The position numbers were made by a program, and so were the translations under genes. From IMG/VR virus record IMGVR_UViG_2651869750_000009: a stretch of DNA of 8,681 nt; one strand, written 5' to 3'. Source of the DNA: a virus (Duplodnaviria; Heunggongvirae; Uroviricota; Caudoviricetes). Below the pieces are notes generated by a model. That model was not told the DNA's origin. It searched no databases and worked only from the letters and a program-made list of their open reading frames with translations. Positions within the stretch are counted from its first letter, which is position 1. The number at the start of each line of letters is the position of its first letter. Below are positions 1 through 8,681 of the stretch, piece by piece.

Positions 1-12
1 TCGTGCATTCAT
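1..12 (-). CDS. First four codons (M-N-A-R) of the next tail gene, continuing off the window start; by lambda gene order probably the tape measure protein
   Basis: ATG at 12..10 on the minus strand, preceded by AAGGA (plus 21-26) with about 8 nt spacing; sits immediately after G-T. Only 4 codons visible, so identity is inferred from position alone. Confidence 0.3.
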
Positions 13-58
13 CTTAAATGTCCTTTTACTGCGAAAATGGACATTAGTATCGGAAACA

Positions 59-137
59 GGAAAGGGAGGCGAAAGACGGTTTAAATGATGCGCTTACGGA
101 AAGGGAGGCGAAAGACGGTTTAAATGATGCGCTTACG
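59..137. repeat. Perfect tandem direct repeat, 2 x 39 bp (59-97 and 98-136, plus one further matching base)
   Basis: Unit ggaaagggaggcgaaagacggtttaaatgatgcgcttac occurs twice head-to-tail with no mismatch; the repeat contains the stop codon and last five codons of the G-T frame (stop at 120-122). Confidence 0.9.
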
Positions 138-784
138 CAGACTGAAATCAGAGGGATGCATATCCGGATCGCAAAAAAACAGGCTGAGTACAGCGTACGT
201 CAGCCCGGAAAAATGCATATCCAGCTGGGTATCCTGAAAATAATGCGTGCGGTAAAAACGGTGCCAGTCGGCATATTCGGTGGATGTCATCCCGGCAAGC
301 ATGGCGCGCCAGTCGGGTCTCCCCATCTCACGCGCCAGTCTGAGGGCAAAGTTCAGCTCACCGTCGAAGACTTTCCCGCAGAAAAATCATCATCAGTCAG
401 CGTGTTATTTTTCGCCACTTCAGTAATATCAGTATCCGGACGAACAGCTTCGATCATCCCGGACAGGCACAACACCACGTCTTCCGCCCGGGCAATGGCA
501 TCGGCAGGCCAGGTGGTGAGCACTTCCTGCTCTATCTTCATCACGGCCTCATTCATTGACGGTGACTGCGTTTTCTGTGGATGGTTATGCCACAGGGACA
601 TCGCCACCAGAAACGCGCCGGTTCTGACAAGATCTTCCACACTCACCTGCAGGTTGCCGCTGGCTTCAGCCTCTTCTGCCCGCCGTTTCAGGAGGGCAAG
701 ATGCTCAATACGCTGCAGCGCAGACAGCTCAGAAAGCGTGACGGATACACCGTTATATTCAAATTGTTCTGTTTTCAGGAACAT
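120..784 (-). CDS. T: Tail assembly chaperone G-T fusion made by programmed -1 ribosomal frameshift at 371-377
   Basis: The -1 frame is open from the GGGAAAG heptamer to the TAA at 122..120 and reads ...GKVFDGELNFALRLAREMGRPDWRAMLAGMTSTEYADWHRFY...SLRKRII; same position and heptamer as the lambda G/G-T recoding site. The T part is about 85 codons. Confidence 0.75.
353..784 (-). CDS. G: Tail assembly chaperone, lambda gpG homologue
   Basis: 143-aa ORF (MFLKTEQFEYNGVSVTLSELSALQRIEHLALLKR...SAGKSSTVS) with ATG at 784..782; matches my recollection of lambda gpG over most of its length; located between V and T as in lambda. Confidence 0.9.
   Translation of the reverse strand: MFLKTEQFEYNGVSVTLSELSALQRIEHLALLKRRAEEAEASGNLQVSVEDLVRTGAFLVAMSLWHNHPQKTQSPSMNEAVMKIEQEVLTTWPADAIARAEDVVLCLSGMIEAVRPDTDITEVAKNNTLTDDDFSAGKSSTVS
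371..377 (-). other. Slippery heptamer G GGA AAG for -1 programmed ribosomal frameshifting (G to G-T)
   Basis: Plus-strand ctttccc = minus-strand GGGAAAG, in the zero frame as GCG GGA AAG, eight codons before the G stop. Confidence 0.75.
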
Positions 785-802
785 CGCTTATCTCTCAGCT
801 CT

Positions 803-1549
803 TTAGCCACCCGGCACATTATTAACGGTAATTTCAGCCACCGCAGCAAACTGACCATTACCGGAAATCACAGGGATGCTGACTTTTCCATCCTTAACCC
901 CCGTCACAGTAATCGTCATATCTTTCACGCTAATGGTGGCTTTTGATGGATCGGCGGAAATCGCCCTGAATGTCTTATCCGTTGCATTTTCCGGTTCCAC
1001 AGTAACGGTCAGGGTGGTTGTTTTCCCTTTTTCAACCGTACCTGTCGGCGTTACCTTAATCGCAGTGACCGGCGTAATTTTGCTGCGTTCTTCCGCTACA
1101 GAAGGTTTACCCACGTTAGTGACTTTCACCGTGCGGGTGATCACTTCTTTCGCCGTCACGGCCTTACCGATACTGCTGACCCAGCCACGAAACACATCCA
1201 CCGTGCCATTCGGAAAACGGATTTTATAGGCCCGCACATCCCCGCTTTCAAACCAGCCTATAAGCCCTTTCTGACCTTCCTCTCCCGGTTTCCAGGCCAG
1301 TGTAAAACTGGTATCACCTGCAGATTTCTGTCCCTGCCCGGTCGCGCTCCAGTCCGCGTCTTCATCATCCAGGTAGTTATCATCGTAGGATTCTGCCGTC
1401 ATCTCGCCCGGCGTCAGATCCTTCACCTTAGCCAGTCGCTGCCAGTCATCATCTGACAACGGGTTGGCATAAGCATCATCCTTGCCGGTGTACACCCATA
1501 GTGTGGTGCCGGAACCTTTCACCGGCTCAAGAGGATTTGGTATTGCCAT
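803..1549 (-). CDS. V: Major tail tube protein, lambda gpV homologue, with C-terminal Ig-like domain
   Basis: 248-aa [23 protein letters not shown]...[42 protein letters not shown]..., near-identical to lambda gpV as I recall it over long stretches; ATG at 1549..1547 with GAGGA upstream. Confidence 0.95.
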
Positions 1550-1556
1550 ATCGTCC

Positions 1557-1955
1557 TCACATCTCGTAGGTAATTTTCCACAGGAGATCTGCCGATCCCC
1601 ACATCATAAACTCATCATCCCGGCGGTAGTCATACCCCTGAAGATTCATCTTCAGCAGTAACGCACTGAGGCCGGGAACCGCCTCCAGCGCAGGAAGGAT
1701 TTTCTCTTCCATCCACATATCCAGTGCCGAGTCCGGTTCTTTTGCCCTGAGAAAAACTTCAATATGCAGTGTCGCCTCCCAGGTCCCCTCATCAACGAAC
1801 TCGTCAGCAGCAGACGCATCAGTCAGGTAAACAGCAACAGCAGGCAGTTCCTGTTCATCAATAAAAACCGGGCGGCCGTCAAACCAGCTCACCCGCTCAG
1901 AAATATTGTCTTTCAGGGCAGACAGAACTGCCGTCCGTATTTCACGGTGTTTCAT
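1557..1955 (-). CDS. U: Tail terminator protein, lambda gpU homologue
   Basis: 132-aa [17 protein letters not shown]...LPAVAVYLT...LHIEVFL...GYDYRRDD...ITYEM; matches lambda gpU motifs and length as I recall them; GGGAGG upstream of ATG at 1955..1953. Confidence 0.92.
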
Positions 1956-1967
1956 ACACCCTCCCTG

Positions 1968-2597
1968 TCATTTTCTTTTCAGCACCAGGCGTAACTGATG
2001 CGTCATGGCTTTCATCATCTGCGCCGGTAATTTTTCCCGGTACATCCGGTCCCGTTCACGTTCAAAAGTTTCTGCCAGCGGTCCGGCAGTCGGAATTTTC
2101 ACCACTTCAATCGGCAGACGGTAGCGTTTCGGCCTCCCTTTGCTGTCAGCACCGGTGGACGATGGTGCCCACGGCATACGCTGCATCACATGCCAGCGTC
2201 CGTTAGCCAGCCGGGTGATAAAGGCGTCCGGGATCCGTCTTTTCCCCACAATCAGCACACTGCCGCCCCCTTTCTTGACCGAACGCTCGCCTTTCTTTCG
2301 TCGCTTTCTGCGGGAAAGCCGCACGCTGGCCGTCCCCAGTTTTATGGCGGGCAGATTACCGGTGTTGATGATGACCTTCGCATAAATCCTGTCTGCGCTA
2401 GCCCGTTGCAGGCGGATACGCTCACGGATGAGACGGCGCGGAACCGCCAGCTCCCTGGCAACCGAAGAGGCCGTTTTCGCGATGATGGACTCCGCCACAC
2501 GGTTAAGTGTCGTGGCGGCAGCCCGGGGAACGGCACGGCGGTCAATTGCATCCAGATTTTTCATGGCCTGCGCCAGACCTTTTATTGCCATACTCAT
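1968..2597 (-). CDS. Z: Tail completion protein, lambda gpZ homologue
   Basis: 209-aa ORF MSMAIKGLAQAMKNL...SRRKRRKKGERSVKKGGGSVLIVGKRRIPDAFITRLANGRWHVMQR...; collinear with lambda gpZ as I recall it. Its ATG (2597..2595) overlaps the upstream stop as ATGA. An alternative ATG at 2591 would give the lambda-like MAIKGL N-terminus. Confidence 0.88.
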   Translation of the reverse strand: MSMAIKGLAQAMKNLDAIDRRAVPRAAATTLNRVAESIIAKTASSVARELAVPRRLIRERIRLQRASADRIYAKVIINTGNLPAIKLGTASVRLSRRKRRKKGERSVKKGGGSVLIVGKRRIPDAFITRLANGRWHVMQRMPWAPSSTGADSKGRPKRYRLPIEVVKIPTAGPLAETFERERDRMYREKLPAQMMKAMTHQLRLVLKRK

Positions 2598-2875
2598 TCC
2601 TGTTCGACAAAAATCCGGGGTTTACCGTTGTACGTGTCATAACGGGTCACCGTCAGTGTGCGCCCCGCAAACACAACAACATCATGACGGGCCGGACGGT
2701 ACCGGGCTGAAAACACCACCAGTGACAACTGGCTGCCCGAAAGCGCCCCCATCTCCGCGGACTCTTCCTCCGGCATCACGTCATACACGACGCCGTTAAT
2801 CTCCGCCTGTTTGCCCATCACCCGAACGGTCGCCCCGTCCATCCGGCAACACATTCGCGTAAACAGATCAGACAT
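2594..2875 (-). CDS. Head-tail joining / head completion protein, FII-like by position and size
   Basis: 93-aa ORF with ATG at 2875..2873, overlapping the upstream stop and the Z start; it sits directly upstream of Z, where lambda has FII. Sequence similarity to lambda FII is weak, so the function is inferred mainly from synteny. Confidence 0.6.
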   Translation of the reverse strand: MSDLFTRMCCRMDGATVRVMGKQAEINGVVYDVMPEEESAEMGALSGSQLSLVVFSARYRPARHDVVVFAGRTLTVTRYDTYNGKPRIFVEQE

Positions 2876-3194
2876 TGATTTTTACCGCCACAGTGGCGCT
2901 GTTTGCAGGAGCATTTTCCCAGGCTACCCCCGCGGCCACCGCACCCTCTGCAGCCAGCTGCACAACCCCGTCCTTCAGATAAACCACCGCGCCGGACTGA
3001 ATGTCGTCAGCAGACTGTTTGGGCAGAAGGAACACGCCTTCGGCAAAACCGTCACCGGCATCACCGGCAGGAATATCTGTAATGGCCACGGCCACCATAC
3101 TGCCGACCACCACCGCAGCACCGCTCAGGATGGTCTGATCTCCGGCATTCACCAGTTCAATGGTGGTACCGTCCTGTACAAAATTTTTCGCCAT
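2868..3194 (-). CDS. Small Ala/Val/Gly-rich head-associated protein, DUF2190-like; candidate decoration or cementing protein, function unverified
   Basis: 108-aa ORF MAKNFVQDGTTIELVNAGDQTIL...GVFLLPKQSADDIQSGAVVYLKDG...; the N-terminal MAKN(F/Y)VQ.G and internal LPK pattern match what I recall for DUF2190 phage proteins that usually follow the capsid gene. ATG at 3194..3192 with GGAGA 9 nt upstream. Confidence 0.6.
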   Translation of the reverse strand: MAKNFVQDGTTIELVNAGDQTILSGAAVVVGSMVAVAITDIPAGDAGDGFAEGVFLLPKQSADDIQSGAVVYLKDGVVQLAAEGAVAAGVAWENAPANSATVAVKINV

Positions 3195-3211
3195 AATGCT
3201 GTTTCTCCGGA

Positions 3212-3233
3212 CAGCCCCTGTGGGGCTGTTTTT
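3212..3233 (+). terminator. Plus-strand-oriented intrinsic-terminator-like hairpin: 7-bp GC stem, 3-nt loop, T5 tail
   Basis: cagcccc-tgt-ggggctg (3212-3228) followed by ttttt (3229-3233). On the minus-strand mRNA the same stem lies just 5' of the DUF2190 ribosome-binding site. Confidence 0.35.
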
Positions 3234-3240
3234 CAGGCAT

Positions 3241-3262
3241 AAAAAAAGCCCTTTCGGGCAGT
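3241..3262 (-). terminator. Candidate rho-independent terminator downstream of the capsid gene, probably partial
   Basis: Minus-strand RNA reads GCCC-GAAA-GGGC followed by UUUUUUU (plus 3248-3259 stem, 3241-3247 A-run), about 20 nt after the capsid stop codon. The stem is only 4 bp, so strength is uncertain. Confidence 0.45.
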
Positions 3263-3281
3263 GATTGTGATAACTCGGTTA

Positions 3282-5261
3282 TCAGGCCACCGACGAACGC
3301 ACCAGCCCGCGCCAGTCAAGTGGTGCCACTCCGGCATCAATACGGATTTTTGTGGCAATGCCGTCAGTGGTGAAACCTTCCTGCTGATCAATGTATGGCG
3401 TGTCCACACCATCCAGCCAGGCCACTTCAATGGTGTCAGTGCCCTGTGCCGCCGCCAGATACCAGGTTTTCGGATCTGCCGCATCAAGACGCGCTTCTGC
3501 AATCACCTCAGCAAAGTTCTGGATGGGGTTAATGACACCGGCGTTTGCATCCGCCCCTTTCACACTGGCCGATTTGATGGTCTGGTTCGCCACCGTCTCC
3601 AGTGCCACCGGTACCAGCATAAAGGCCGGACGGATATTCAGGGCGCGATCGCCTTCTTTCTGCAGGCGCATCATCTGACGGGCCGCATCCAGTCCGGAAA
3701 CGGAAATCCCACCGGTGGCAATATTTTTGTGATCGGCATGGAACAGCGCCTTACCGTCTGACAGTTTCGGGTTATCCGTCAGCACCTTGTAAACCAGGTC
3801 ACCAATCGTTGCCTTCGCCGCACGCCCCATCTTCATCGGCACGTCCACCAGCATATTCAGATCATCATTGATAATGGCCTGGCGGGTGATGGAGAAAATC
3901 TCCCCGTAAGTGGCCAGTGCAATGGTCTCCTTGCGATCTGAGGTGGTGATGTATTTATACTCCGCCCCCTCACGAACCTGGCGCAGAGAACCAAAACCGC
4001 CCATCCCCACGCGATACGCTGTTTTGAAGTCTGACAGGCGTCCCTTACGGGTCCACTTCTGGAAGGTTTCTTCTGATTCCTCCCAGCCCTGGATCAGCCC
4101 CTTGTTCGACACATCCAGCAGAATATTGCCAAAATCAGAGGTGCTGTGCGTCAGCGCCAGCCCGACCATCTGCATGGGGTTATAACTGGCCACCCCAATA
4201 CCGCGCTCCGTCAGTGACATGCGAGCCCATTCACGCAGGGTCATCCCGTTATAGGCGTTATCCTTCTCGACATTTTCAAATCCGGCACGGGCCAGCATCG
4301 CCTGGCGGATCCCGTCCCCCACAAAATTGCCGTTTCCGGCATAAATATGAGCCGGTGTATTTTTGTTGGTCGGCGAGGACTCCTTGCCCATTTCATTCAG
4401 CAGACGTTCACGGGCCATTTCCAGCGAACAGTCAGGATCAGCCACGCACTGTGCCTGAAGCGTCTGATAGCGACCGCCGAACATGGCAAACAGATCGTTA
4501 ATGCCTGACATGCGGGCTTTCTGTTCTGCCATAACGCGGGCGCGAATGGTCGCCTCATCAGACACTGCCGGTACCGGTGATGGTTCTGTTACCGCCGGTG
4601 CAGGGATTGTCACTGTGGTATCACGCGGGGCACTGTTGTATGGCTGCGTGATCATATTTCGGATGGATTCCGGCATCTTTTTAAATTCCTCTGTACGTTT
4701 TGACTGAATACATGCCATTGCCTTAACGGCTGGCGTCACCTGGTCTGCAAATCCGTGTGCCAGACACTCGGCACCGGACATCCAGGTCTCATCCGCCAGC
4801 ATGGCGGCAATTTCATCGGTAGTTTTTCCGGTTTTCTGCGCATATACCGGCACCATAACCGACTCAAGTTTGTCCAGACGTTCGGCATAAGTGCGCATTT
4901 TCTCCGCATCACCACCGCTGATCCCCCAGGGTTTATGGATCATCATGAAGGCATTTTCCGGCATAATGACCGTGTCACCGGCCATCGCAATCAGGGATGC
5001 CATCGAGGCGGCAACGCCATCCACATACACGGTAATGGCCGCACCGTGATTTTTCAGGGCATTAAAAATGGCGATGCCTTCAAAGACATCGCCACCCGGT
5101 GAGTTGATGTGGAGATTAATGTGGGTGATATCACCCAGGGCATTCATATCGCTGACAAACTGCTTCGCGGTAACTCCCCAGAAACCAATCTCGTCATAAA
5201 TATAAATATCCGCCTCACCCTGACCACCCGCCTGCATCCTGAACCAGGATTTATTCTTCAT
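3282..5261 (-). CDS. Tripartite head gene: N-terminal ClpP-like prohead protease, central scaffold-like linker, C-terminal HK97-fold major capsid protein (Gifsy-2 type)
   Basis: Single 659-codon ORF from ATG 5261..5259. Residues about 17-180 align with ClpP, including the catalytic motifs AASMAS (Ser codon 5004-5006), MIHKPWG (His codon 4935-4937) and ADETWMS (Asp codon 4791-4793). The C-terminal ~330 aa resemble Mu gpT / HK97-type capsid proteins. The ORF track's longer version starts at a GTG at 5453, but that extension looks non-protein-like and overlaps the portal 3' end. Confidence 0.88.
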   Translation of the reverse strand: MKNKSWFRMQAGGQGEADIYIYDEIGFWGVTAKQFVSDMNALGDITHINLHINSPGGDVFEGIAIFNALKNHGAAITVYVDGVAASMASLIAMAGDTVIMPENAFMMIHKPWGISGGDAEKMRTYAERLDKLESVMVPVYAQKTGKTTDEIAAMLADETWMSGAECLAHGFADQVTPAVKAMACIQSKRTEEFKKMPESIRNMITQPYNSAPRDTTVTIPAPAVTEPSPVPAVSDEATIRARVMAEQKARMSGINDLFAMFGGRYQTLQAQCVADPDCSLEMARERLLNEMGKESSPTNKNTPAHIYAGNGNFVGDGIRQAMLARAGFENVEKDNAYNGMTLREWARMSLTERGIGVASYNPMQMVGLALTHSTSDFGNILLDVSNKGLIQGWEESEETFQKWTRKGRLSDFKTAYRVGMGGFGSLRQVREGAEYKYITTSDRKETIALATYGEIFSITRQAIINDDLNMLVDVPMKMGRAAKATIGDLVYKVLTDNPKLSDGKALFHADHKNIATGGISVSGLDAARQMMRLQKEGDRALNIRPAFMLVPVALETVANQTIKSASVKGADANAGVINPIQNFAEVIAEARLDAADPKTWYLAAAQGTDTIEVAWLDGVDTPYIDQQEGFTTDGIATKIRIDAGVAPLDWRGLVRSSVA

Positions 5262-6753
5262 GCTGGCTGTCGGTGGCCTGCTGACGCTGTTGTTCAGTTC
5301 CGGCACTGTTGCCTCCTTTGTCGTTGACGGGGTCAGTATCAAAGACCAGCCCCAGTCTGCTGTTTTCATCAATTTCAGCCTTGCGGCGACGTTTGACCTC
5401 ATCCGGATTGCGCCCGCCGGCACGCACCCAGTCAGATTCTGTCGCTGCACCACCCCGGATCTGAATTCTCCAGGCTTCAGCTTCCTTAACCGGGTCGATC
5501 CACGGCATCACCGGACCGGAATACGTCGCGTTATATAGCGTTTTCATCTCCACATCCGCCGGAATTTTCAGCAGACCTGCCGCAACCACCATATTCAGCC
5601 ATGTCCGGTACACCGGACGGGTTACCGCGCCAATAAAACAGTCCTGCAGGATCAGGTAACCATCCGTGGACTCGACCAGCTCCTGCCGCTGGGCACTGTA
5701 GGTGCCGTTATAGTTACGCGCCGCACTGGAAAAACTCAGACGACTGCCCGCTGCCACTGCACGCAACTGGCCGTTGCGGAAAGTTTCAAGGTTGGGATTG
5801 GGACGGTCTGATTTGACCATGCCGATATCCTCGCCCTTGCGCAAATCGTCATAAATAATACCCGGGGTGATATGGACTTCCCGGTCGGTTTCTTTGATCC
5901 CCGGCTCTTCATAGTCCTGCCCGTCACCTTTACGGATATACAGTCCCAGCGCCGCGGCAATACGCGCCGCAGTGAGTTCCGCATCCTCATACTCCTTAAG
6001 GGCACTGATCCGCATCAGCACCCCCGATAACATGGATGAGCCTCGCGTCTGATGCAGACGACGAGTGAACTTCAGGTGGATCATTTTTCCGGCAGCGATT
6101 TCTTTCGTATCACTCTGCCGGCCGCTGACCGGATAATTTTTATAAACCAGATATTTTTTCGGTCTTCCCCACTCATCAAGAAAAACCCCCTGATTCAGTC
6201 CGGCGGATTCATCAGTGCGCATGGGAACAAAATCCGGCTCCATCGCCTCAAGCCAGAATGGCACTCCCGCCGTCCGTTCCAGACCGTTTCCCGCACCACT
6301 GACCATCTGCGCAAACACTTCACCATCCCGCAGCCAGGTCCGCAGCAGTAAACGTTCAAGCACGGGACGGGTATACTGCCCTGTCACATCCGGACTCACG
6401 GACCACTCAGCCCACAACCGGCGGATATCCGCAGCCAGCTCTGCCGCCATTTCCCCGTTTTTTCGTAATGGCTGAGGCTCCACAATAATTCCCCTGGCAC
6501 CAATCACCCGCTCTTCCAGCTTGTCAAACACACCAATCACCAGGTCATGATTGATATCCAGAAAACGGGCCTGCTCCCGCAGGGAAACCGCACCGTATTT
6601 ACTGAGCTGATCAGCAGAGCGATTTTCCCGCCGGGCTTTATGTGTCCGGGTCGGTTTCACCGCCTCATAGGCCATGATTAACGCCCTTGAACGCAGTCTG
6701 GCTGCTTTCCAGCCGGGGGAAAACACGCCTATCACATCATCAATAATTGCCAT
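5251..6753 (-). CDS. B: Portal protein, lambda gpB family
   Basis: 500-aa ORF in the position of lambda B between W and the protease/capsid gene; size and overall character fit lambda-family portals. ATG at 6753..6751 overlaps the W stop (TAATG). Confidence 0.9.
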   Translation of the reverse strand: MAIIDDVIGVFSPGWKAARLRSRALIMAYEAVKPTRTHKARRENRSADQLSKYGAVSLREQARFLDINHDLVIGVFDKLEERVIGARGIIVEPQPLRKNGEMAAELAADIRRLWAEWSVSPDVTGQYTRPVLERLLLRTWLRDGEVFAQMVSGAGNGLERTAGVPFWLEAMEPDFVPMRTDESAGLNQGVFLDEWGRPKKYLVYKNYPVSGRQSDTKEIAAGKMIHLKFTRRLHQTRGSSMLSGVLMRISALKEYEDAELTAARIAAALGLYIRKGDGQDYEEPGIKETDREVHITPGIIYDDLRKGEDIGMVKSDRPNPNLETFRNGQLRAVAAGSRLSFSSAARNYNGTYSAQRQELVESTDGYLILQDCFIGAVTRPVYRTWLNMVVAAGLLKIPADVEMKTLYNATYSGPVMPWIDPVKEAEAWRIQIRGGAATESDWVRAGGRNPDEVKRRRKAEIDENSRLGLVFDTDPVNDKGGNSAGTEQQRQQATDSQHEE

Positions 6754-6989
6754 TAAAACCTCGCCAGTTTAAATCCTGGTTTTCCCCGCCTGCGGCTCAC
6801 CATCGCGGCAAGCCTGCGTTCCCACTCCTGACGTCCGGCGCGGATCTGAGAAAGGCTTTCCAGCGTCAGTTGCTGTCCGTTGAAGGTGACAGACTTCCCC
6901 TCCAGTACGGCCATTTCCGCTTCACGGTACCGCTGTATCATTTCTCTGGCTTCTTCTGTGCTCACAACCAGCCTCCTGATGTTATCCAT
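6753..6989 (-). CDS. W: Head-tail connector / head completion protein, lambda gpW-like
   Basis: 78-aa ORF; C-terminal ...SRRRGKPGF resembles the lambda gpW C-terminus (...RRRGPAGF) as I recall it. ATG at 6989..6987 with GGAAG 7 nt upstream; the start overlaps the last 28 nt of the terminase gene. Confidence 0.75.
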   Translation of the reverse strand: MDNIRRLVVSTEEAREMIQRYREAEMAVLEGKSVTFNGQQLTLESLSQIRAGRQEWERRLAAMVSRRRGKPGFKLARF

Positions 6990-8681
6990 GGATTATCTTC
7001 CGCACGCTCCGTCCGCAGTTTTTTCTTCCGGCGACGGCGTTTTTCTGCCCCGGCCGTCAGTTCCGGGGATACCGTTTCACCAGAACGCTCCTGCGGGAAG
7101 ACGAGCCACGTTTCCCGCTGTGCCCAGTCCGGTGCGGAGGGCCAGCGGATCTTTTCGTAACCATGCAGAACGGCAAGCGCATCCGCATAAACCAGCAGGT
7201 CAAACGCCTCGTTAGCTCCCCTGCCCGGTTTTCGCCATTTTCCGTCACTGCCGCGCTCTTCATAGGTCAGCTCATCGTAAAACCATCGCCCCAGCCAGTC
7301 GGGAAAGTGGATATAGTTCGGCCCTGGTGTGTCACGCCACAGGGCATTATTTACACGGTCCTTAAACGCATCCGTCTGAACCAGCCACAGCGCGACATCG
7401 CCACTGGCTCTGGCACGGCGGGCACTTCTGCCGGTATTATCCGGGAAGGTACGGTTAATCAGCCTGTCACGGCGAAGTCCATCCCCCTTGAACAGAAACA
7501 CCCTGTTGCCCAGTCCGTCACTCCGGCAACGACACCAGAAACGATAGGCGTTATCTGTCACCCCGGCTTCCCCTCCCGTATCCACCGCCATGGCCATCAG
7601 ACGCATGCGCACATCCGGATCAGAAGCCAGCGGCCATGTTTTATGGAACACATCCGTCAGCAACAAATCCCAGTCCTCCGGATATGCCGCCGGATCAACC
7701 GGCAGACTTTCACCGTTGGGACTGCAGCGCAGTGAATGCCGGATGTTATAGCGATCAACAATCCAGCGTTCCCCCTGCTCTCCGTATCCGGTGATCTGCA
7801 CAACAAAACGGCGATTTTTACCGCCCTGTACGTCAACCGTTGCCTCAATAAAACGCACACCATCCGGCACAGATCGCCGGGGAAACGGCTCGGCACGCTG
7901 TTCAAGCAGTTCACTTTTACGCTGTTCCGTGGCTGAACGGGGCAGATAGGGGCGTCCGATATCGGTGTTCACCACCGCTTTCAGGGTCTCTTCACTGCCG
8001 GTTCGCTCATACTCTTCTTCTGCCGCCAGCAGTTTAAAAATCAGTTGTTCCCAGGTCTGAAACGCCGCAGCCGGCCCCTCCATCCAGAATGACGCAATCC
8101 GGGAATTTCGTGGCGTTCCGGTGATACTGCCGTCCGCCACCGCCCGTTCACCTTCACGAAGCCAGATCCCTTTGTTATTCAGTTCGCGTTTCTGCTCAGG
8201 GGCAATCAGCCCGCGACAATGCGGACACATCAGACGGGCAGCCTGACCGGCAGCCACAAAATCCGGGTTATTCCGGTATCCGGTCATGTTATCCATCACC
8301 GGCTGAAAATATTCCCCGCAGTGCGGACACGGCCAGTACCACCGGCGGCGGTCTCCCCGGTTATACAGTGACAGGATCCCCGTTGTTGGCGGTGCCTCAT
8401 GTGCGCCGCCACAGCGCCATTTGGTGTCAGTGATATCCCGCCCCGGCGAACTCTCGACCAGGGTCATCCCCGAGGACATAAAGGTGGTGGTACGCTTTGA
8501 TGCCAGGGTGAAGGCATCCCCTTCCCCGTCCACGTTTTCAGGGAAACGGTCATAATCCGTCAGCGCCACACGACGGTAATCCGTAAGCGTCGTCTCAGCA
8601 CCGTCTGGCAGATCCTGAAATTCCTGAGAGAATAGTGGACACCAAATATGGTGGACGCTATCCATGAAATCATTAACCGCA
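6962..8681 (-). CDS. A: Terminase large subunit, lambda gpA family; N-terminal portion lies beyond the window end
   Basis: Reading frame is open from the window edge (no in-frame stop in 8666-8681) to TGA at 6964..6962. The product contains WYWPCPHCGEYF and a second CPHC, VDTGG and other features I recall from lambda gpA-type terminases. The ATG at 8665 is probably internal. Confidence 0.92.
   Translation of the reverse strand, partial: AVNDFMDSVHHIWCPLFSQEFQDLPDGAETTLTDYRRVALTDYDRFPENVDGEGDAFTLASKRTTTFMSSGMTLVESSPGRDITDTKWRCGGAHEAPPTTGILSLYNRGDRRRWYWPCPHCGEYFQPVMDNMTGYRNNPDFVAAGQAARLMCPHCRGLIAPEQKRELNNKGIWLREGERAVADGSITGTPRNSRIASFWMEGPAAAFQTWEQLIFKLLAAEEEYERTGSEETLKAVVNTDIGRPYLPRSATEQRKSELLEQRAEPFPRRSVPDGVRFIEATVDVQGGKNRRFVVQITGYGEQGERWIVDRYNIRHSLRCSPNGESLPVDPAAYPEDWDLLLTDVFHKTWPLASDPDVRMRLMAMAVDTGGEAGVTDNAYRFWCRCRSDGLGNRVFLFKGDGLRRDRLINRTFPDNTGRSARRARASGDVALWLVQTDAFKDRVNNALWRDTPGPNYIHFPDWLGRWFYDELTYEERGSDGKWRKPGRGANEAFDLLVYADALAVLHGYEKIRWPSAPDWAQRETWLVFPQERSGETVSPELTAGAEKRRRRKKKLRTERAEDNPWITSGGWL

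Follow-up and report, generated by a model that had tools for sequence, protein, structure and literature searches.

A capsid gene fused to a ClpP-fold protease, very probably of the Gifsy-2 type, in an IS-disrupted Escherichia coli prophage

On the minus strand of the window (the whole stretch of DNA analysed here, 8,681 nucleotides), a single reading frame joins a ClpP-fold serine protease domain, a conserved helical middle domain and an HK97-fold major capsid protein domain. This order of parts within one chain, proposed in an earlier note on this DNA, is borne out by Pfam, NCBIfam and Foldseek. The product very probably belongs to the Gifsy-2-type fusion family of enterobacterial lambdoid prophages, and the same confidence extends to its four-part layout, while the maturation scheme set out below is a likely one; we found no evidence contradicting membership of the NF045540/Gifsy-2-type family. 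The architecture is already known from Gifsy-2 in 2010, from a curated NCBIfam model and from the RefSeq product name, and the gene is an ordinary, very common prophage gene.

Family and domains of the fusion protein

Residues are numbered from ATG 5261 unless stated otherwise. The fusion protein scored 995.8 bits (cutoff 475) against NCBIfam NF045540 (scaf_prot_MCP1), which is named ‘ClpP-like prohead protease/major capsid protein fusion protein’, with residues 17–657 lying on profile positions 2–651 of 652. The score against the sister model NF045541 (scaf_prot_MCP2) was 417.5, below its cutoff of 525, and the protein is therefore of the MCP1 type. PHROG 133 matched the protein over its full length, and the RefSeq product name at the identical locus is the NF045540 name. 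Of 5426 complete E. coli genomes, 1825 (about one third) had a near-full-length copy, with the gene at up to 6 places per genome. The architecture had been described as unusual rather than new; it is indeed not new, but in view of the NCBIfam family, the PHROG and these genome counts, ‘unusual’ is arguably too generous.

Protease and capsid protein might normally be encoded by separate genes and have been fused here by accident, through loss of a stop codon or a frameshift as the prophage decayed. The surrounding prophage is clearly in decay, its identical counterpart in RefSeq having been hit by IS elements three times, and this would suit such an origin. However, the fused form is found in the viable phages Ayreon, cdtI, mEp460 and Gifsy-2, more than 100 divergent cluster representatives (35–60% identity) are fused over their full length, the curated NCBIfam model spans both halves, and the only ‘split’ relative examined here is a frameshifted copy. 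An accidental fusion is thus effectively refuted, with a negligible chance of being the correct account.

The ClpP-fold serine protease domain occupies residues 17–180 (4722..5213, minus strand) and was detected with Pfam, NCBIfam and Foldseek. Pfam CLP_protease (PF00574) matched residues 30–176 (E 1.5e-36; 126.4 bits vs a gathering score of 20.2), and NCBIfam NF045542, ‘head maturation protease, ClpP-related’, scored 220.8 bits (cutoff 120). When an AlphaFold model of the whole chain (pLDDT 84.9) was compared with solved ClpP structures in Foldseek, ~168 residues were aligned with target-normalised TM-scores of 0.77–0.84 and an rmsd of about 2–3 Å, which together with the Pfam match upholds the claim of an N-terminal ClpP fold. 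The domain shares with cellular ClpP (MEROPS S14) the fold, the GxAASMA and MIHxP motifs, a His-to-acid spacing of 49 residues and the long ‘handle’ helix (119–144 in the fusion protein). Unlike cellular ClpP, to which it is only 24–30% identical, it has Glu at the catalytic Asp position and forms one chain with a capsid protein; a partner ATPase is not implied. Against TIGR00493 (cellular ClpP) the score was 64.6 bits vs 308.6, and all other NCBIfam ClpP equivalogs were far under cutoff; the legacy name ‘Clp protease ClpP’ is therefore misleading.

Conservation of the catalytic residues was counted in 48 diverse fused homologues. Ser86, the nucleophile (codon 5004..5006, minus strand; Ser101 in 674-codon numbering), was aligned by HMMER to Ser97 of Thermus thermophilus ClpP (6hwm) and Ser96 of Streptococcus pneumoniae ClpP (1y7o). 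His109 (4935..4937, minus strand) lies in the MIHxP motif, aligned to ClpP MIHQP. Both residues are invariant (48/48), so that these two members of the Ser/His/Asp triad put forward earlier stand. The third, Asp157 (4791–4793, minus strand), does not: it is aligned to ClpP Arg170 rather than to the catalytic Asp, and its position is variable (D15/E14/A12/N3/K2 across the 48 sequences). The residue at the ClpP catalytic-Asp position is Glu158 (4788..4790, minus strand), aligned to D171 of 6hwm and D172 of 1y7o. This position thus holds Glu rather than the Asp171 of ClpP and retains an acidic residue, as it does in 44 of the 48 homologues (Glu in 39, Asp in 5). From these alignments, the catalytic triad of the fusion protease is likely to be Ser-His-Glu; with Glu in place of Asp, catalysis through a Ser/His dyad could in principle be envisaged as well. 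That the whole capsid-tethered ClpP-fold family uses a Ser-His-Glu triad with the acid at position 158, leaving position 157 free to vary, is a tentative generalization that we consider rather unlikely. Literature searches on the catalytic residues of ClpP-like prohead proteases, or under the NCBIfam product name, returned nothing useful.

At the other end of the chain, residues 363–659 (3285..4175, minus strand) form the HK97-fold major capsid protein domain, identified by Pfam, sequence search and Foldseek. Pfam Phage_capsid_4 (PF25209) matched residues 369–656 (E 7e-56; 190.8 bits vs 27) and Mu-like_gpT (PF10124) matched more weakly (E 6e-10; 39.3 bits vs 20.1); among solved capsid proteins, 9jod_A (2e-5) and that of JBD30 (8rkc; 2e-3) were matched by sequence. 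With an AlphaFold model of residues 237–659 (pLDDT 89.7) as the Foldseek query, the best 50 PDB matches were all HK97-fold proteins (E about 1e-8 to 4e-7), HK97 Head II, D3 and JBD30 among them. The proposed C-terminal capsid domain is confirmed by the Pfam match and by these 50 structures. The ORF list, Pfam and PHROG agree that the fusion gene is the only capsid gene of the head module, which has no separate capsid or scaffold gene. The names ‘protease/scaffold protein’, ‘Nu3’ and ‘ClpP’ carried by phage records would suggest that the gene supplies protease and scaffold only and that the capsid protein is encoded elsewhere. Yet both sequence and predicted fold place the last 300 residues among capsid families, and the ORFs from portal to tail (a 108-aa cement protein, a 93-aa PF13856 protein and Z/U/V) offer no other capsid candidate; this reading is almost certainly wrong.

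A linker of roughly 140 Pro/Ala/charged residues had been described between protease and capsid domain. This description does not hold for most of the segment: only residues ~196–235 are variable and disordered, while residues 236–362 are conserved and helical. The Pro-rich, flexible linker (4557..4676, minus strand), delimited by conservation and AlphaFold, is the least conserved part of the protein and a hot spot of insertions and deletions, with pLDDT below 50 at residues 206–233. The middle region (4176..4556, minus strand), delimited in the same way, is predicted to comprise a three-helix module (236–292), a short disordered segment (302–310) and helices leading into the capsid domain. 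Its helices are predicted at pLDDT 85–97, and its sequence is moderately conserved, with R250, R325, G327, N335 and A346 nearly invariant. The region is also common to the protease-protein PHROGs phrog_94, _53, _3348 and _2976, whose matches to the query stop before the capsid domain. Residues 236–362 are presumed to be a scaffold-like domain resembling the delta domain. A sequence search with residues 180–368 against solved structures returned only chance-level matches and no similarity to a solved scaffold.

A Pfam DUF7188 match to the fusion protein (E 0.044, under cutoff) was disregarded. Three split relatives were considered as evidence for the domain boundary and set aside: P0212 is uninformative, lying on a 1.5-kb contig; P0268 is a deletion remnant adjoining an integrase; and P0162 (locus L004) has suffered a frameshift, its homology continuing across the linker in two frames. 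None of the three is a genuine split gene.

Reading frame, start codon and internal starts

The earlier note and the RefSeq/PGAP call both place the gene at 3282–5261, with 659 codons from ATG 5261. Translation from this ATG to the stop codon at 3282–3284 on the minus strand yields 659 residues and no internal stops; the claim of one continuous reading frame over this interval is therefore correct. The start is a different matter. Direct reading of the sequence upstream of ATG 5261 revealed no Shine-Dalgarno sequence, and relatives have Pro, Leu or Ala rather than Met at the corresponding position, the close ones starting at an upstream MP(E/K/Q) codon. By the same direct reading, an AGGAGG at 5312..5317 (minus strand), within the 3′ end of the portal gene, lies 5 nt upstream of GTG 5306. 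The record of the Stx2a phage Stx2_95 annotates the gene in its 674-codon form, and in Gifsy-2 a purine-rich stretch precedes the annotated MPE... start. The gene thus probably starts at GTG 5306 and runs over 3282..5306 (minus strand; 674 codons plus stop) rather than over 659 codons, and the RefSeq start is probably 15 codons short.

The gene copy is intact, as had been stated: its reading frame is unbroken and 672 of 674 residues are identical to those of the Stx2_95 protein, from whose gene it differs by 8 synonymous and 2 non-synonymous codon changes. This ratio and the intactness reflect selection in the lineage, not necessarily in the present host.

Additional products could be nested within the same frame, with internal starts adding scaffold-capsid or capsid-only chains and the protease present on only a fraction of the subunits. 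Lambda makes Nu3 inside gene C in this manner; in a T=7 procapsid, space would be short for 415 protease-plus-scaffold parts, which we put at roughly 16 MDa; and weak purine-rich stretches precede in-frame methionines, M122, M182 and M196 for example. Nevertheless, none of these methionines is conserved in the family (the consensus at 182 and 196 is not Met), a convincing Shine-Dalgarno sequence at proper spacing is absent from the middle region, and the records inspected annotate no internal start. A promoter/terminator scan likewise gave nothing above shuffle expectation for an internal promoter in the fusion gene. We consider nested products improbable and favour a single full-length chain.

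Comparison with known systems and proposed maturation

The earlier note had named Gifsy-2 (Effantin et al., Virology 2010) as the precedent. PMC12315714 and PMC8538268 do cite that study for the protease-scaffold-capsid fusion of Gifsy-2, and the precedent is real: BLASTP against the Gifsy-2 gene (STM1034.3n, NC_010393) gave 61% identity end to end (residues 3–658 vs 28–696, E = 0). In both proteins a ClpP-like protease, a middle domain and an HK97-fold capsid domain follow in the same order, and the Gifsy-2 gene likewise has its upstream start (MPE...) within the end of the portal gene. The present copy differs in residing in E. coli, in an IS-disrupted prophage, and in having a shorter Pro-rich linker, with 13 gap positions in the whole alignment. 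CP-1639, Stx2_95, VT1-Sakai, cdtI, mEp460 and Ayreon carry NF045540/PHROG 133 members from which the present gene differs essentially not at all at the gene level. In VT1-Sakai the fusion gene is split by IS629, whereas in the present prophage the neighbouring genes were hit instead.

The gene order agrees with this relationship; terminase, a small ORF, portal, fusion gene, cement protein and the tail genes Z/U/V/G/T are common to the window and Gifsy-2. The lambda-family portal gene (5251..6753, minus strand; TIGR01539, E 3e-133), whose 3′ end runs into the beginning of the fusion gene, is 65% identical to the Gifsy-2 portal. Immediately downstream of the fusion gene lies the gene of a 108-aa head decoration (cement) protein (2868..3194, minus strand; Pfam Phage_cement_2, E 5e-19; PHROG 122 ‘head decoration’), 54% identical to Gifsy-2 STM1034. 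Next come a gene whose 93-aa product belongs to Pfam PF13856 (‘Gifsy-2’) and the tail genes Z/U/V. The interval between capsid and cement genes contains a terminator-like hairpin (GCCC-GAAA-GGGC, then U7; 3241..3259, minus strand), read from the sequence. Gifsy-2, cdtI and Ayreon have the same hairpin after the fusion gene, and at this place a terminator is annotated in the Ayreon record. An RNAalifold consensus for this interval, which differed from two local hairpins seen by eye, was set aside; two of its four input sequences were identical, which makes its covariation count meaningless.

The HK97 capsid protein gp5 is similar in that its HK97-fold part bears a scaffold function at the N-terminus, and HK97 Head II is matched by the C-terminal fold of the fusion protein. 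Within the HK97 procapsid, a phage protease cuts away this N-terminal scaffold (delta). That protease, gp4, is encoded by a separate gene and has a herpesvirus-protease-like fold, not a ClpP fold, and the HK97 shell is stabilised by covalent chainmail, whereas the present module has a cement protein gene. With lambda the present module shares a lambda-type portal, a gpA-type terminase and lambda-type tail genes, as well as protease and scaffold in one reading frame (C/Nu3 in lambda). In contrast, the lambda capsid protein E is encoded by a separate gene, and the lambda protease is SppA-like (S49), not ClpP-like. No lambda-type capsid, decoration or protease family was among the Pfam and NCBIfam matches of the head module; its capsid and cement families are Phage_capsid_4 (with the weaker Mu-like_gpT) and Phage_cement_2, and its protease is ClpP.

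Based on the family and on HK97 and lambda biology, we propose the following scheme. The product would be a single chain of ~73 kDa with four parts: a ClpP-fold protease (Ser86, His109 and, at the acid position, most likely Glu158), a flexible Pro-rich tether, a helical middle domain that probably serves as internal scaffold like the HK97 delta domain, and the HK97-fold capsid domain. Chains would assemble together on the portal to form a T=7 procapsid in which the protease and scaffold parts point inward, and crowding within the shell would activate the proteases. These would then remove and degrade the N-terminal ~300–360 residues, the first cuts probably falling in the disordered segments 206–233 and 302–310, and leave a capsid protein of about 32–38 kDa. 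Finally, the shell would expand as DNA is packaged, and trimers of the 108-residue cement protein encoded downstream would stabilise it. The Gifsy-2 capsid is T=7 (PMC8814770), and the Gifsy-2 cement protein, located at the three-fold axes, and the lambda decoration protein are both trimeric (PMC8538268). Self-cleavage, also expected in the earlier note, can reasonably be inferred; where the cuts would fall, whether chains would be cut in cis or in trans, and a scaffold function of the middle domain are inferred here as well.

IS insertions and the role of the gene copy

The large terminase gene, of gpA type, persists as a remnant (6962..8587, minus strand) aligned to residues 176–699 of Gifsy-2 TerL. 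About 175 N-terminal residues are missing, among them the stretch where the Gifsy-2 terminase has its Walker A motif, and the Pfam GpA_ATPase match is limited to profile positions 128–247. RefSeq labels this terminase ‘incomplete, missing N-terminus’, with ISEc22 adjoining. The gene is interrupted by the end of an IS66-family element at 8583..8681 (identical to the RefSeq locus L001, in which the element is ISEc22 and IS66-family transposase genes come next), and the match to uninterrupted relatives ends at 8587. A second IS66-family end, at 1..136, abuts and truncates tail assembly gene T; it is 100% identical to the end adjoining the IS679 genes in the RefSeq locus, and its terminal 39 nt are tandemly duplicated. 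The junction between this element and gene T was absent from all complete E. coli genomes searched. The RefSeq locus has three IS insertions; gpK and the tail fibre carry further insertions there. In two genomes that carry the identical locus, the whole window with its IS ends matched at 18 and 20 places.

The intact capsid gene had been taken to suggest that the prophage can still build heads. This does not follow, since an IS66-family element interrupts the large terminase gene and gene T is truncated. As judged from these insertions, the prophage is defective, and DNA packaging and complete tails would be impossible for it alone. Proheads from it are conceivable; packaged heads from the prophage alone are not. 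Because the prophage is so riddled with IS elements, expression of the fusion gene may be moot in the present genome.

The gene may accordingly be a stranded spare part that its own prophage never uses and that persists either because it was disabled only recently or because co-resident lambdoid prophages with near-identical head modules can borrow it through recombination or complementation. We regard this as a serious prospect, at somewhat less than even chances; it concerns the role of this copy and is compatible with the Gifsy-2-type fusion protein as the best explanation of the gene product. The disrupted terminase and gene T, the further insertions in gpK and the tail fibre of the identical RefSeq locus, the occurrence of the gene at up to 6 places per E. 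coli genome and its 99.5% DNA identity to the genes of CP-1639 and Stx2a phages all speak for such a role. On the other side, the intact frame and the 8 synonymous against 2 non-synonymous differences speak of selection in the lineage and not necessarily in this host. As a weaker possibility, the head-gene block between the IS66-family ends might move or recombine as a unit among co-resident prophages.

The viability of a prophage cannot be read from an intact capsid gene; in the present case, IS elements have disrupted both the large terminase gene and a tail chaperone gene in the same 8.7 kb. The finding has little discovery value; its use lies in annotation hygiene, namely in names, the start codon and the likely triad acid Glu158. 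That the gene encodes the major capsid protein is concealed by its older names (‘Clp protease ClpP’, ‘protease/scaffold protein’, ‘Nu3’). If the Ser-His-Glu triad is true, the change from Asp to Glu might tune activity in such a way that the 415 tethered proteases are held quiet until shell closure.

Reading frame and start codon

Translation of the window gave 659 open codons on the minus strand, from ATG 5261 to the stop codon at 3282–3284, and the mechanical ORF of the fusion gene reaches farther upstream, to 5453. In agreement with the earlier note, the gene is not split, but the start at ATG 5261 that the note had assumed is not favored. A Shine–Dalgarno sequence (AGGAGG) lies five bases upstream of GTG 5306, and none precedes ATG 5261. 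In close relatives, the position of the ATG-encoded Met is occupied by Pro, Leu or Ala, and the proteins start with MP(E/K/Q) 15 residues upstream; the annotated start of the Gifsy-2 gene is the equivalent “MPE”, and the Stx2_95 record assigns the gene 674 codons. The fusion product, judged from these sequence features, is probably 674 residues long (computed mass, 73.3 kDa). Residues are numbered here from ATG 5261; the 674-residue form adds 15.

With GTG 5306 as the start, the gene overlaps the 3′ end of the portal gene by 56 nt in a different frame (window 5251–5306; 86 nt in Gifsy-2), and its ribosome-binding site falls within the portal coding sequence. This arrangement suggests that portal and capsid synthesis would be translationally coupled if translation begins there. 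Internal initiation, which would yield protease-less subunits, found no support, as the candidate Met codons are unconserved and lack good ribosome-binding sites.

Protease, middle and capsid domains

A CLP_protease domain was detected by Pfam at residues 30–176 (E = 1.5e-36). In an AlphaFold2 model based on an alignment of 51 diverse homologues (mean pLDDT, 84.9), the first 170 residues fit onto many ClpP chains of known structure (target-normalized TM score, ~0.8; rmsd, 2–3 Å). At the other end, Pfam placed a Phage_capsid_4 domain at residues 369–656 (E = 7e-56), together with a weaker Mu-like gpT match. A second model, covering residues 237–659 (pLDDT, 89.7), had only HK97-fold shell proteins as its best 50 PDB matches, namely encapsulins and the capsid proteins of phages, such as HK97 Head II, D3 and JBD30. 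Both folds are present by Pfam and by predicted structure and the ORF is unsplit; thus, none of the findings that the earlier note had named as contradicting its reading was obtained. Older annotations take the gene to encode a protease and scaffold only. The C-terminal capsid fold excludes this, and the head module holds no other capsid gene.

Two residues of the proposed catalytic triad, S86 and H109, are invariant among 48 diverse fused homologues and align to the ClpP Ser and His. The third, D157, was misassigned: this position is variable in the 48 sequences (D15/E14/A12/N3/K2) and pairs with the Arg preceding the ClpP catalytic Asp, whereas E158 (E39/D5) aligns to the catalytic Asp itself, D171 of Thermus thermophilus (6hwm) and D172 of Streptococcus pneumoniae (1y7o, numbered after subtraction of a 20-residue tag offset). 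The resulting His-to-acid spacing of 49 residues equals that of T. thermophilus ClpP (6hwm, H122 to D171). By homology, the third triad residue would be Glu158.

The region described earlier as a linker of roughly 140 residues is mostly not a variable one. Only residues ~196–235 are poorly conserved and prone to insertion and deletion, and residues 206–233 are predicted to be disordered (pLDDT below 50). Three confidently predicted helices follow (236–292), then a second, short segment of predicted disorder (302–310), and predicted helices at 313–371 that run into the capsid domain. Conservation extends over this middle region, where R250, R325, G327, N335 and A346 are nearly invariant; no relative of it was detectable among solved structures. 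Some PHROGs of protease proteins contain the region as well, with query matches that stop before the capsid domain, which fits a scaffold-like module able to travel with either partner.

In HK97, the delta domain is fused to the capsid protein; in lambda, protease and scaffold lie in a shared frame. By analogy with these phages, and with what citing papers report of Gifsy-2, we propose a plausible processing mechanism. First, chains would form a T=7 procapsid upon the portal, their N-terminal parts lying in its interior. The tethered proteases would next cut off protease, linker and middle domain, with the disordered segments 206–233 and 302–310 as candidate first targets, leaving a capsid protein of 32–38 kDa. 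The shell would then expand upon packaging and take up the cement protein.

Neighboring elements and state of the prophage

The capsid–cement gap (3195–3281, minus strand) contains a GCCC-GAAA-GGGC hairpin followed by U7 (3241–3259) and a second hairpin (3212–3228) directly before the cement gene ribosome-binding site. The former recurs in Gifsy-2, cdtI and Ayreon, its loop varying, and the Ayreon record annotates a terminator at this gap; for the latter, Gifsy-2 retains hairpin potential with a different sequence. The terminator-like element may determine how abundant capsid transcripts are relative to downstream ones. A 93-aa ORF 3′ of the cement gene (2594–2875, minus strand) matches PF13856, a family that carries the name “Gifsy-2” and the description “ATP-binding sugar transporter from pro-phage”; the ORF product is “DNA breaking-rejoining protein” in RefSeq and “minor tail protein” in PHROGs. 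These names look unreliable, and the position of the ORF suggests a head–tail joining protein.

Escherichia coli FDAARGOS_1059 and an O111:H2 strain each carry a prophage with 100% identity to window 137–8681. In window 6962–8681, an IS66-family element cuts the minus-strand large terminase gene, and the ATPase domain has lost its N-terminal part. Of Gifsy-2 TerL, only the portion from residue 176 onward aligns with the remaining ORF, which thus lacks the stretch carrying the Walker A motif in Gifsy-2; its match to the GpA_ATPase profile is confined to the final half. Sequence from ~8583–8588 onward is the IS end, ISEc22 in the identical RefSeq locus, where the terminase is annotated as a two-piece pseudogene and interruptions also affect gpK and the tail fibre gene. 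The listed ATG-initiated ORF 6962–8665 is spurious and extends into the IS end.

Tail assembly chaperone genes G (353–784) and T (remnant, 120–326) form a lambda-like pair (window 120–784, minus strand); in lambda, a programmed −1 frameshift from G gives access to T. Here, an IS66-family element end (1–136) truncates T, with the junction at 137. It is 100% identical to the end beside the IS679 genes in locus L001, in opposite orientation, and its final 39 nt are duplicated in tandem (59–97 = 98–136). The junction occurs in 0 of 5426 complete E. coli genomes and thus reflects an insertion private to this strain or else an artefact of assembly or of the contig end.

By the window sequence itself, the prophage is defective. 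The earlier note had suggested that it can still build heads. Fusion gene, portal and cement gene are all intact, and empty proheads might be assembled, provided that there is read-through by late transcription; with the terminase and gene T disrupted, however, packaged heads and complete virions are not expected from this prophage alone.

Relatives and frequency of the fusion

The protein matches NCBIfam NF045540, [quoted passage not shown], end to end (995.8 bits; cutoff, 475), exactly the RefSeq product name at the identical prophage locus, and, likewise at full length, PHROG 133. At the DNA level, the gene shares 99.5% identity with its counterparts in phage CP-1639 and several Stx2a-converting phages; 2 of 674 residues differ from the Stx2_95 protein (8 synonymous versus 2 non-synonymous codon differences). 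The Gifsy-2 precedent named in the earlier note is real: PMC12315714 and PMC8538268 cite Effantin et al. for this fusion. The Gifsy-2 gene (NC_010393, 22471–24561) shares 61% protein identity across the whole length. The head modules share their gene order (gpA-type large terminase, small head–tail adaptor-like ORF, portal, fusion gene, cement, and tail genes Z, U, V, G and T), with 65% identity for the lambda-family portal and 54% for the 108-residue cement protein (Pfam Phage_cement_2).

Accidental fusion of normally separate protease and capsid genes is excluded by the family-wide fused architecture; the one “split” relative inspected proved to be a copy of the fusion gene with a frameshift. 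That locus (2411–4386; GCA_000755365.1, contig BBMQ01000056.1) is annotated as a 201-aa ClpP protease and a separate 443-aa capsid protein. Its homology to the window protein continues from one frame into another, the two overlapping across the linker, and it was rejected as a genuine split gene.

A search of 1.84 billion cluster representatives (E ≤ 1e-30) gave 7966 matches; among the top 150, over 100 represent the complete fusion, at 640–700 residues and 35–60% identity. By megablast, 2070 of the 5426 E. coli genomes match the fusion gene, 1825 near full length. These counts indicate that the protease–capsid architecture is neither new nor rare; “unusual rather than new” in the earlier note was, if anything, generous. 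The observation in that note is confirmed, and the core of its interpretation was right, although four details were wrong or imprecise. The fusion gene is already known and common.
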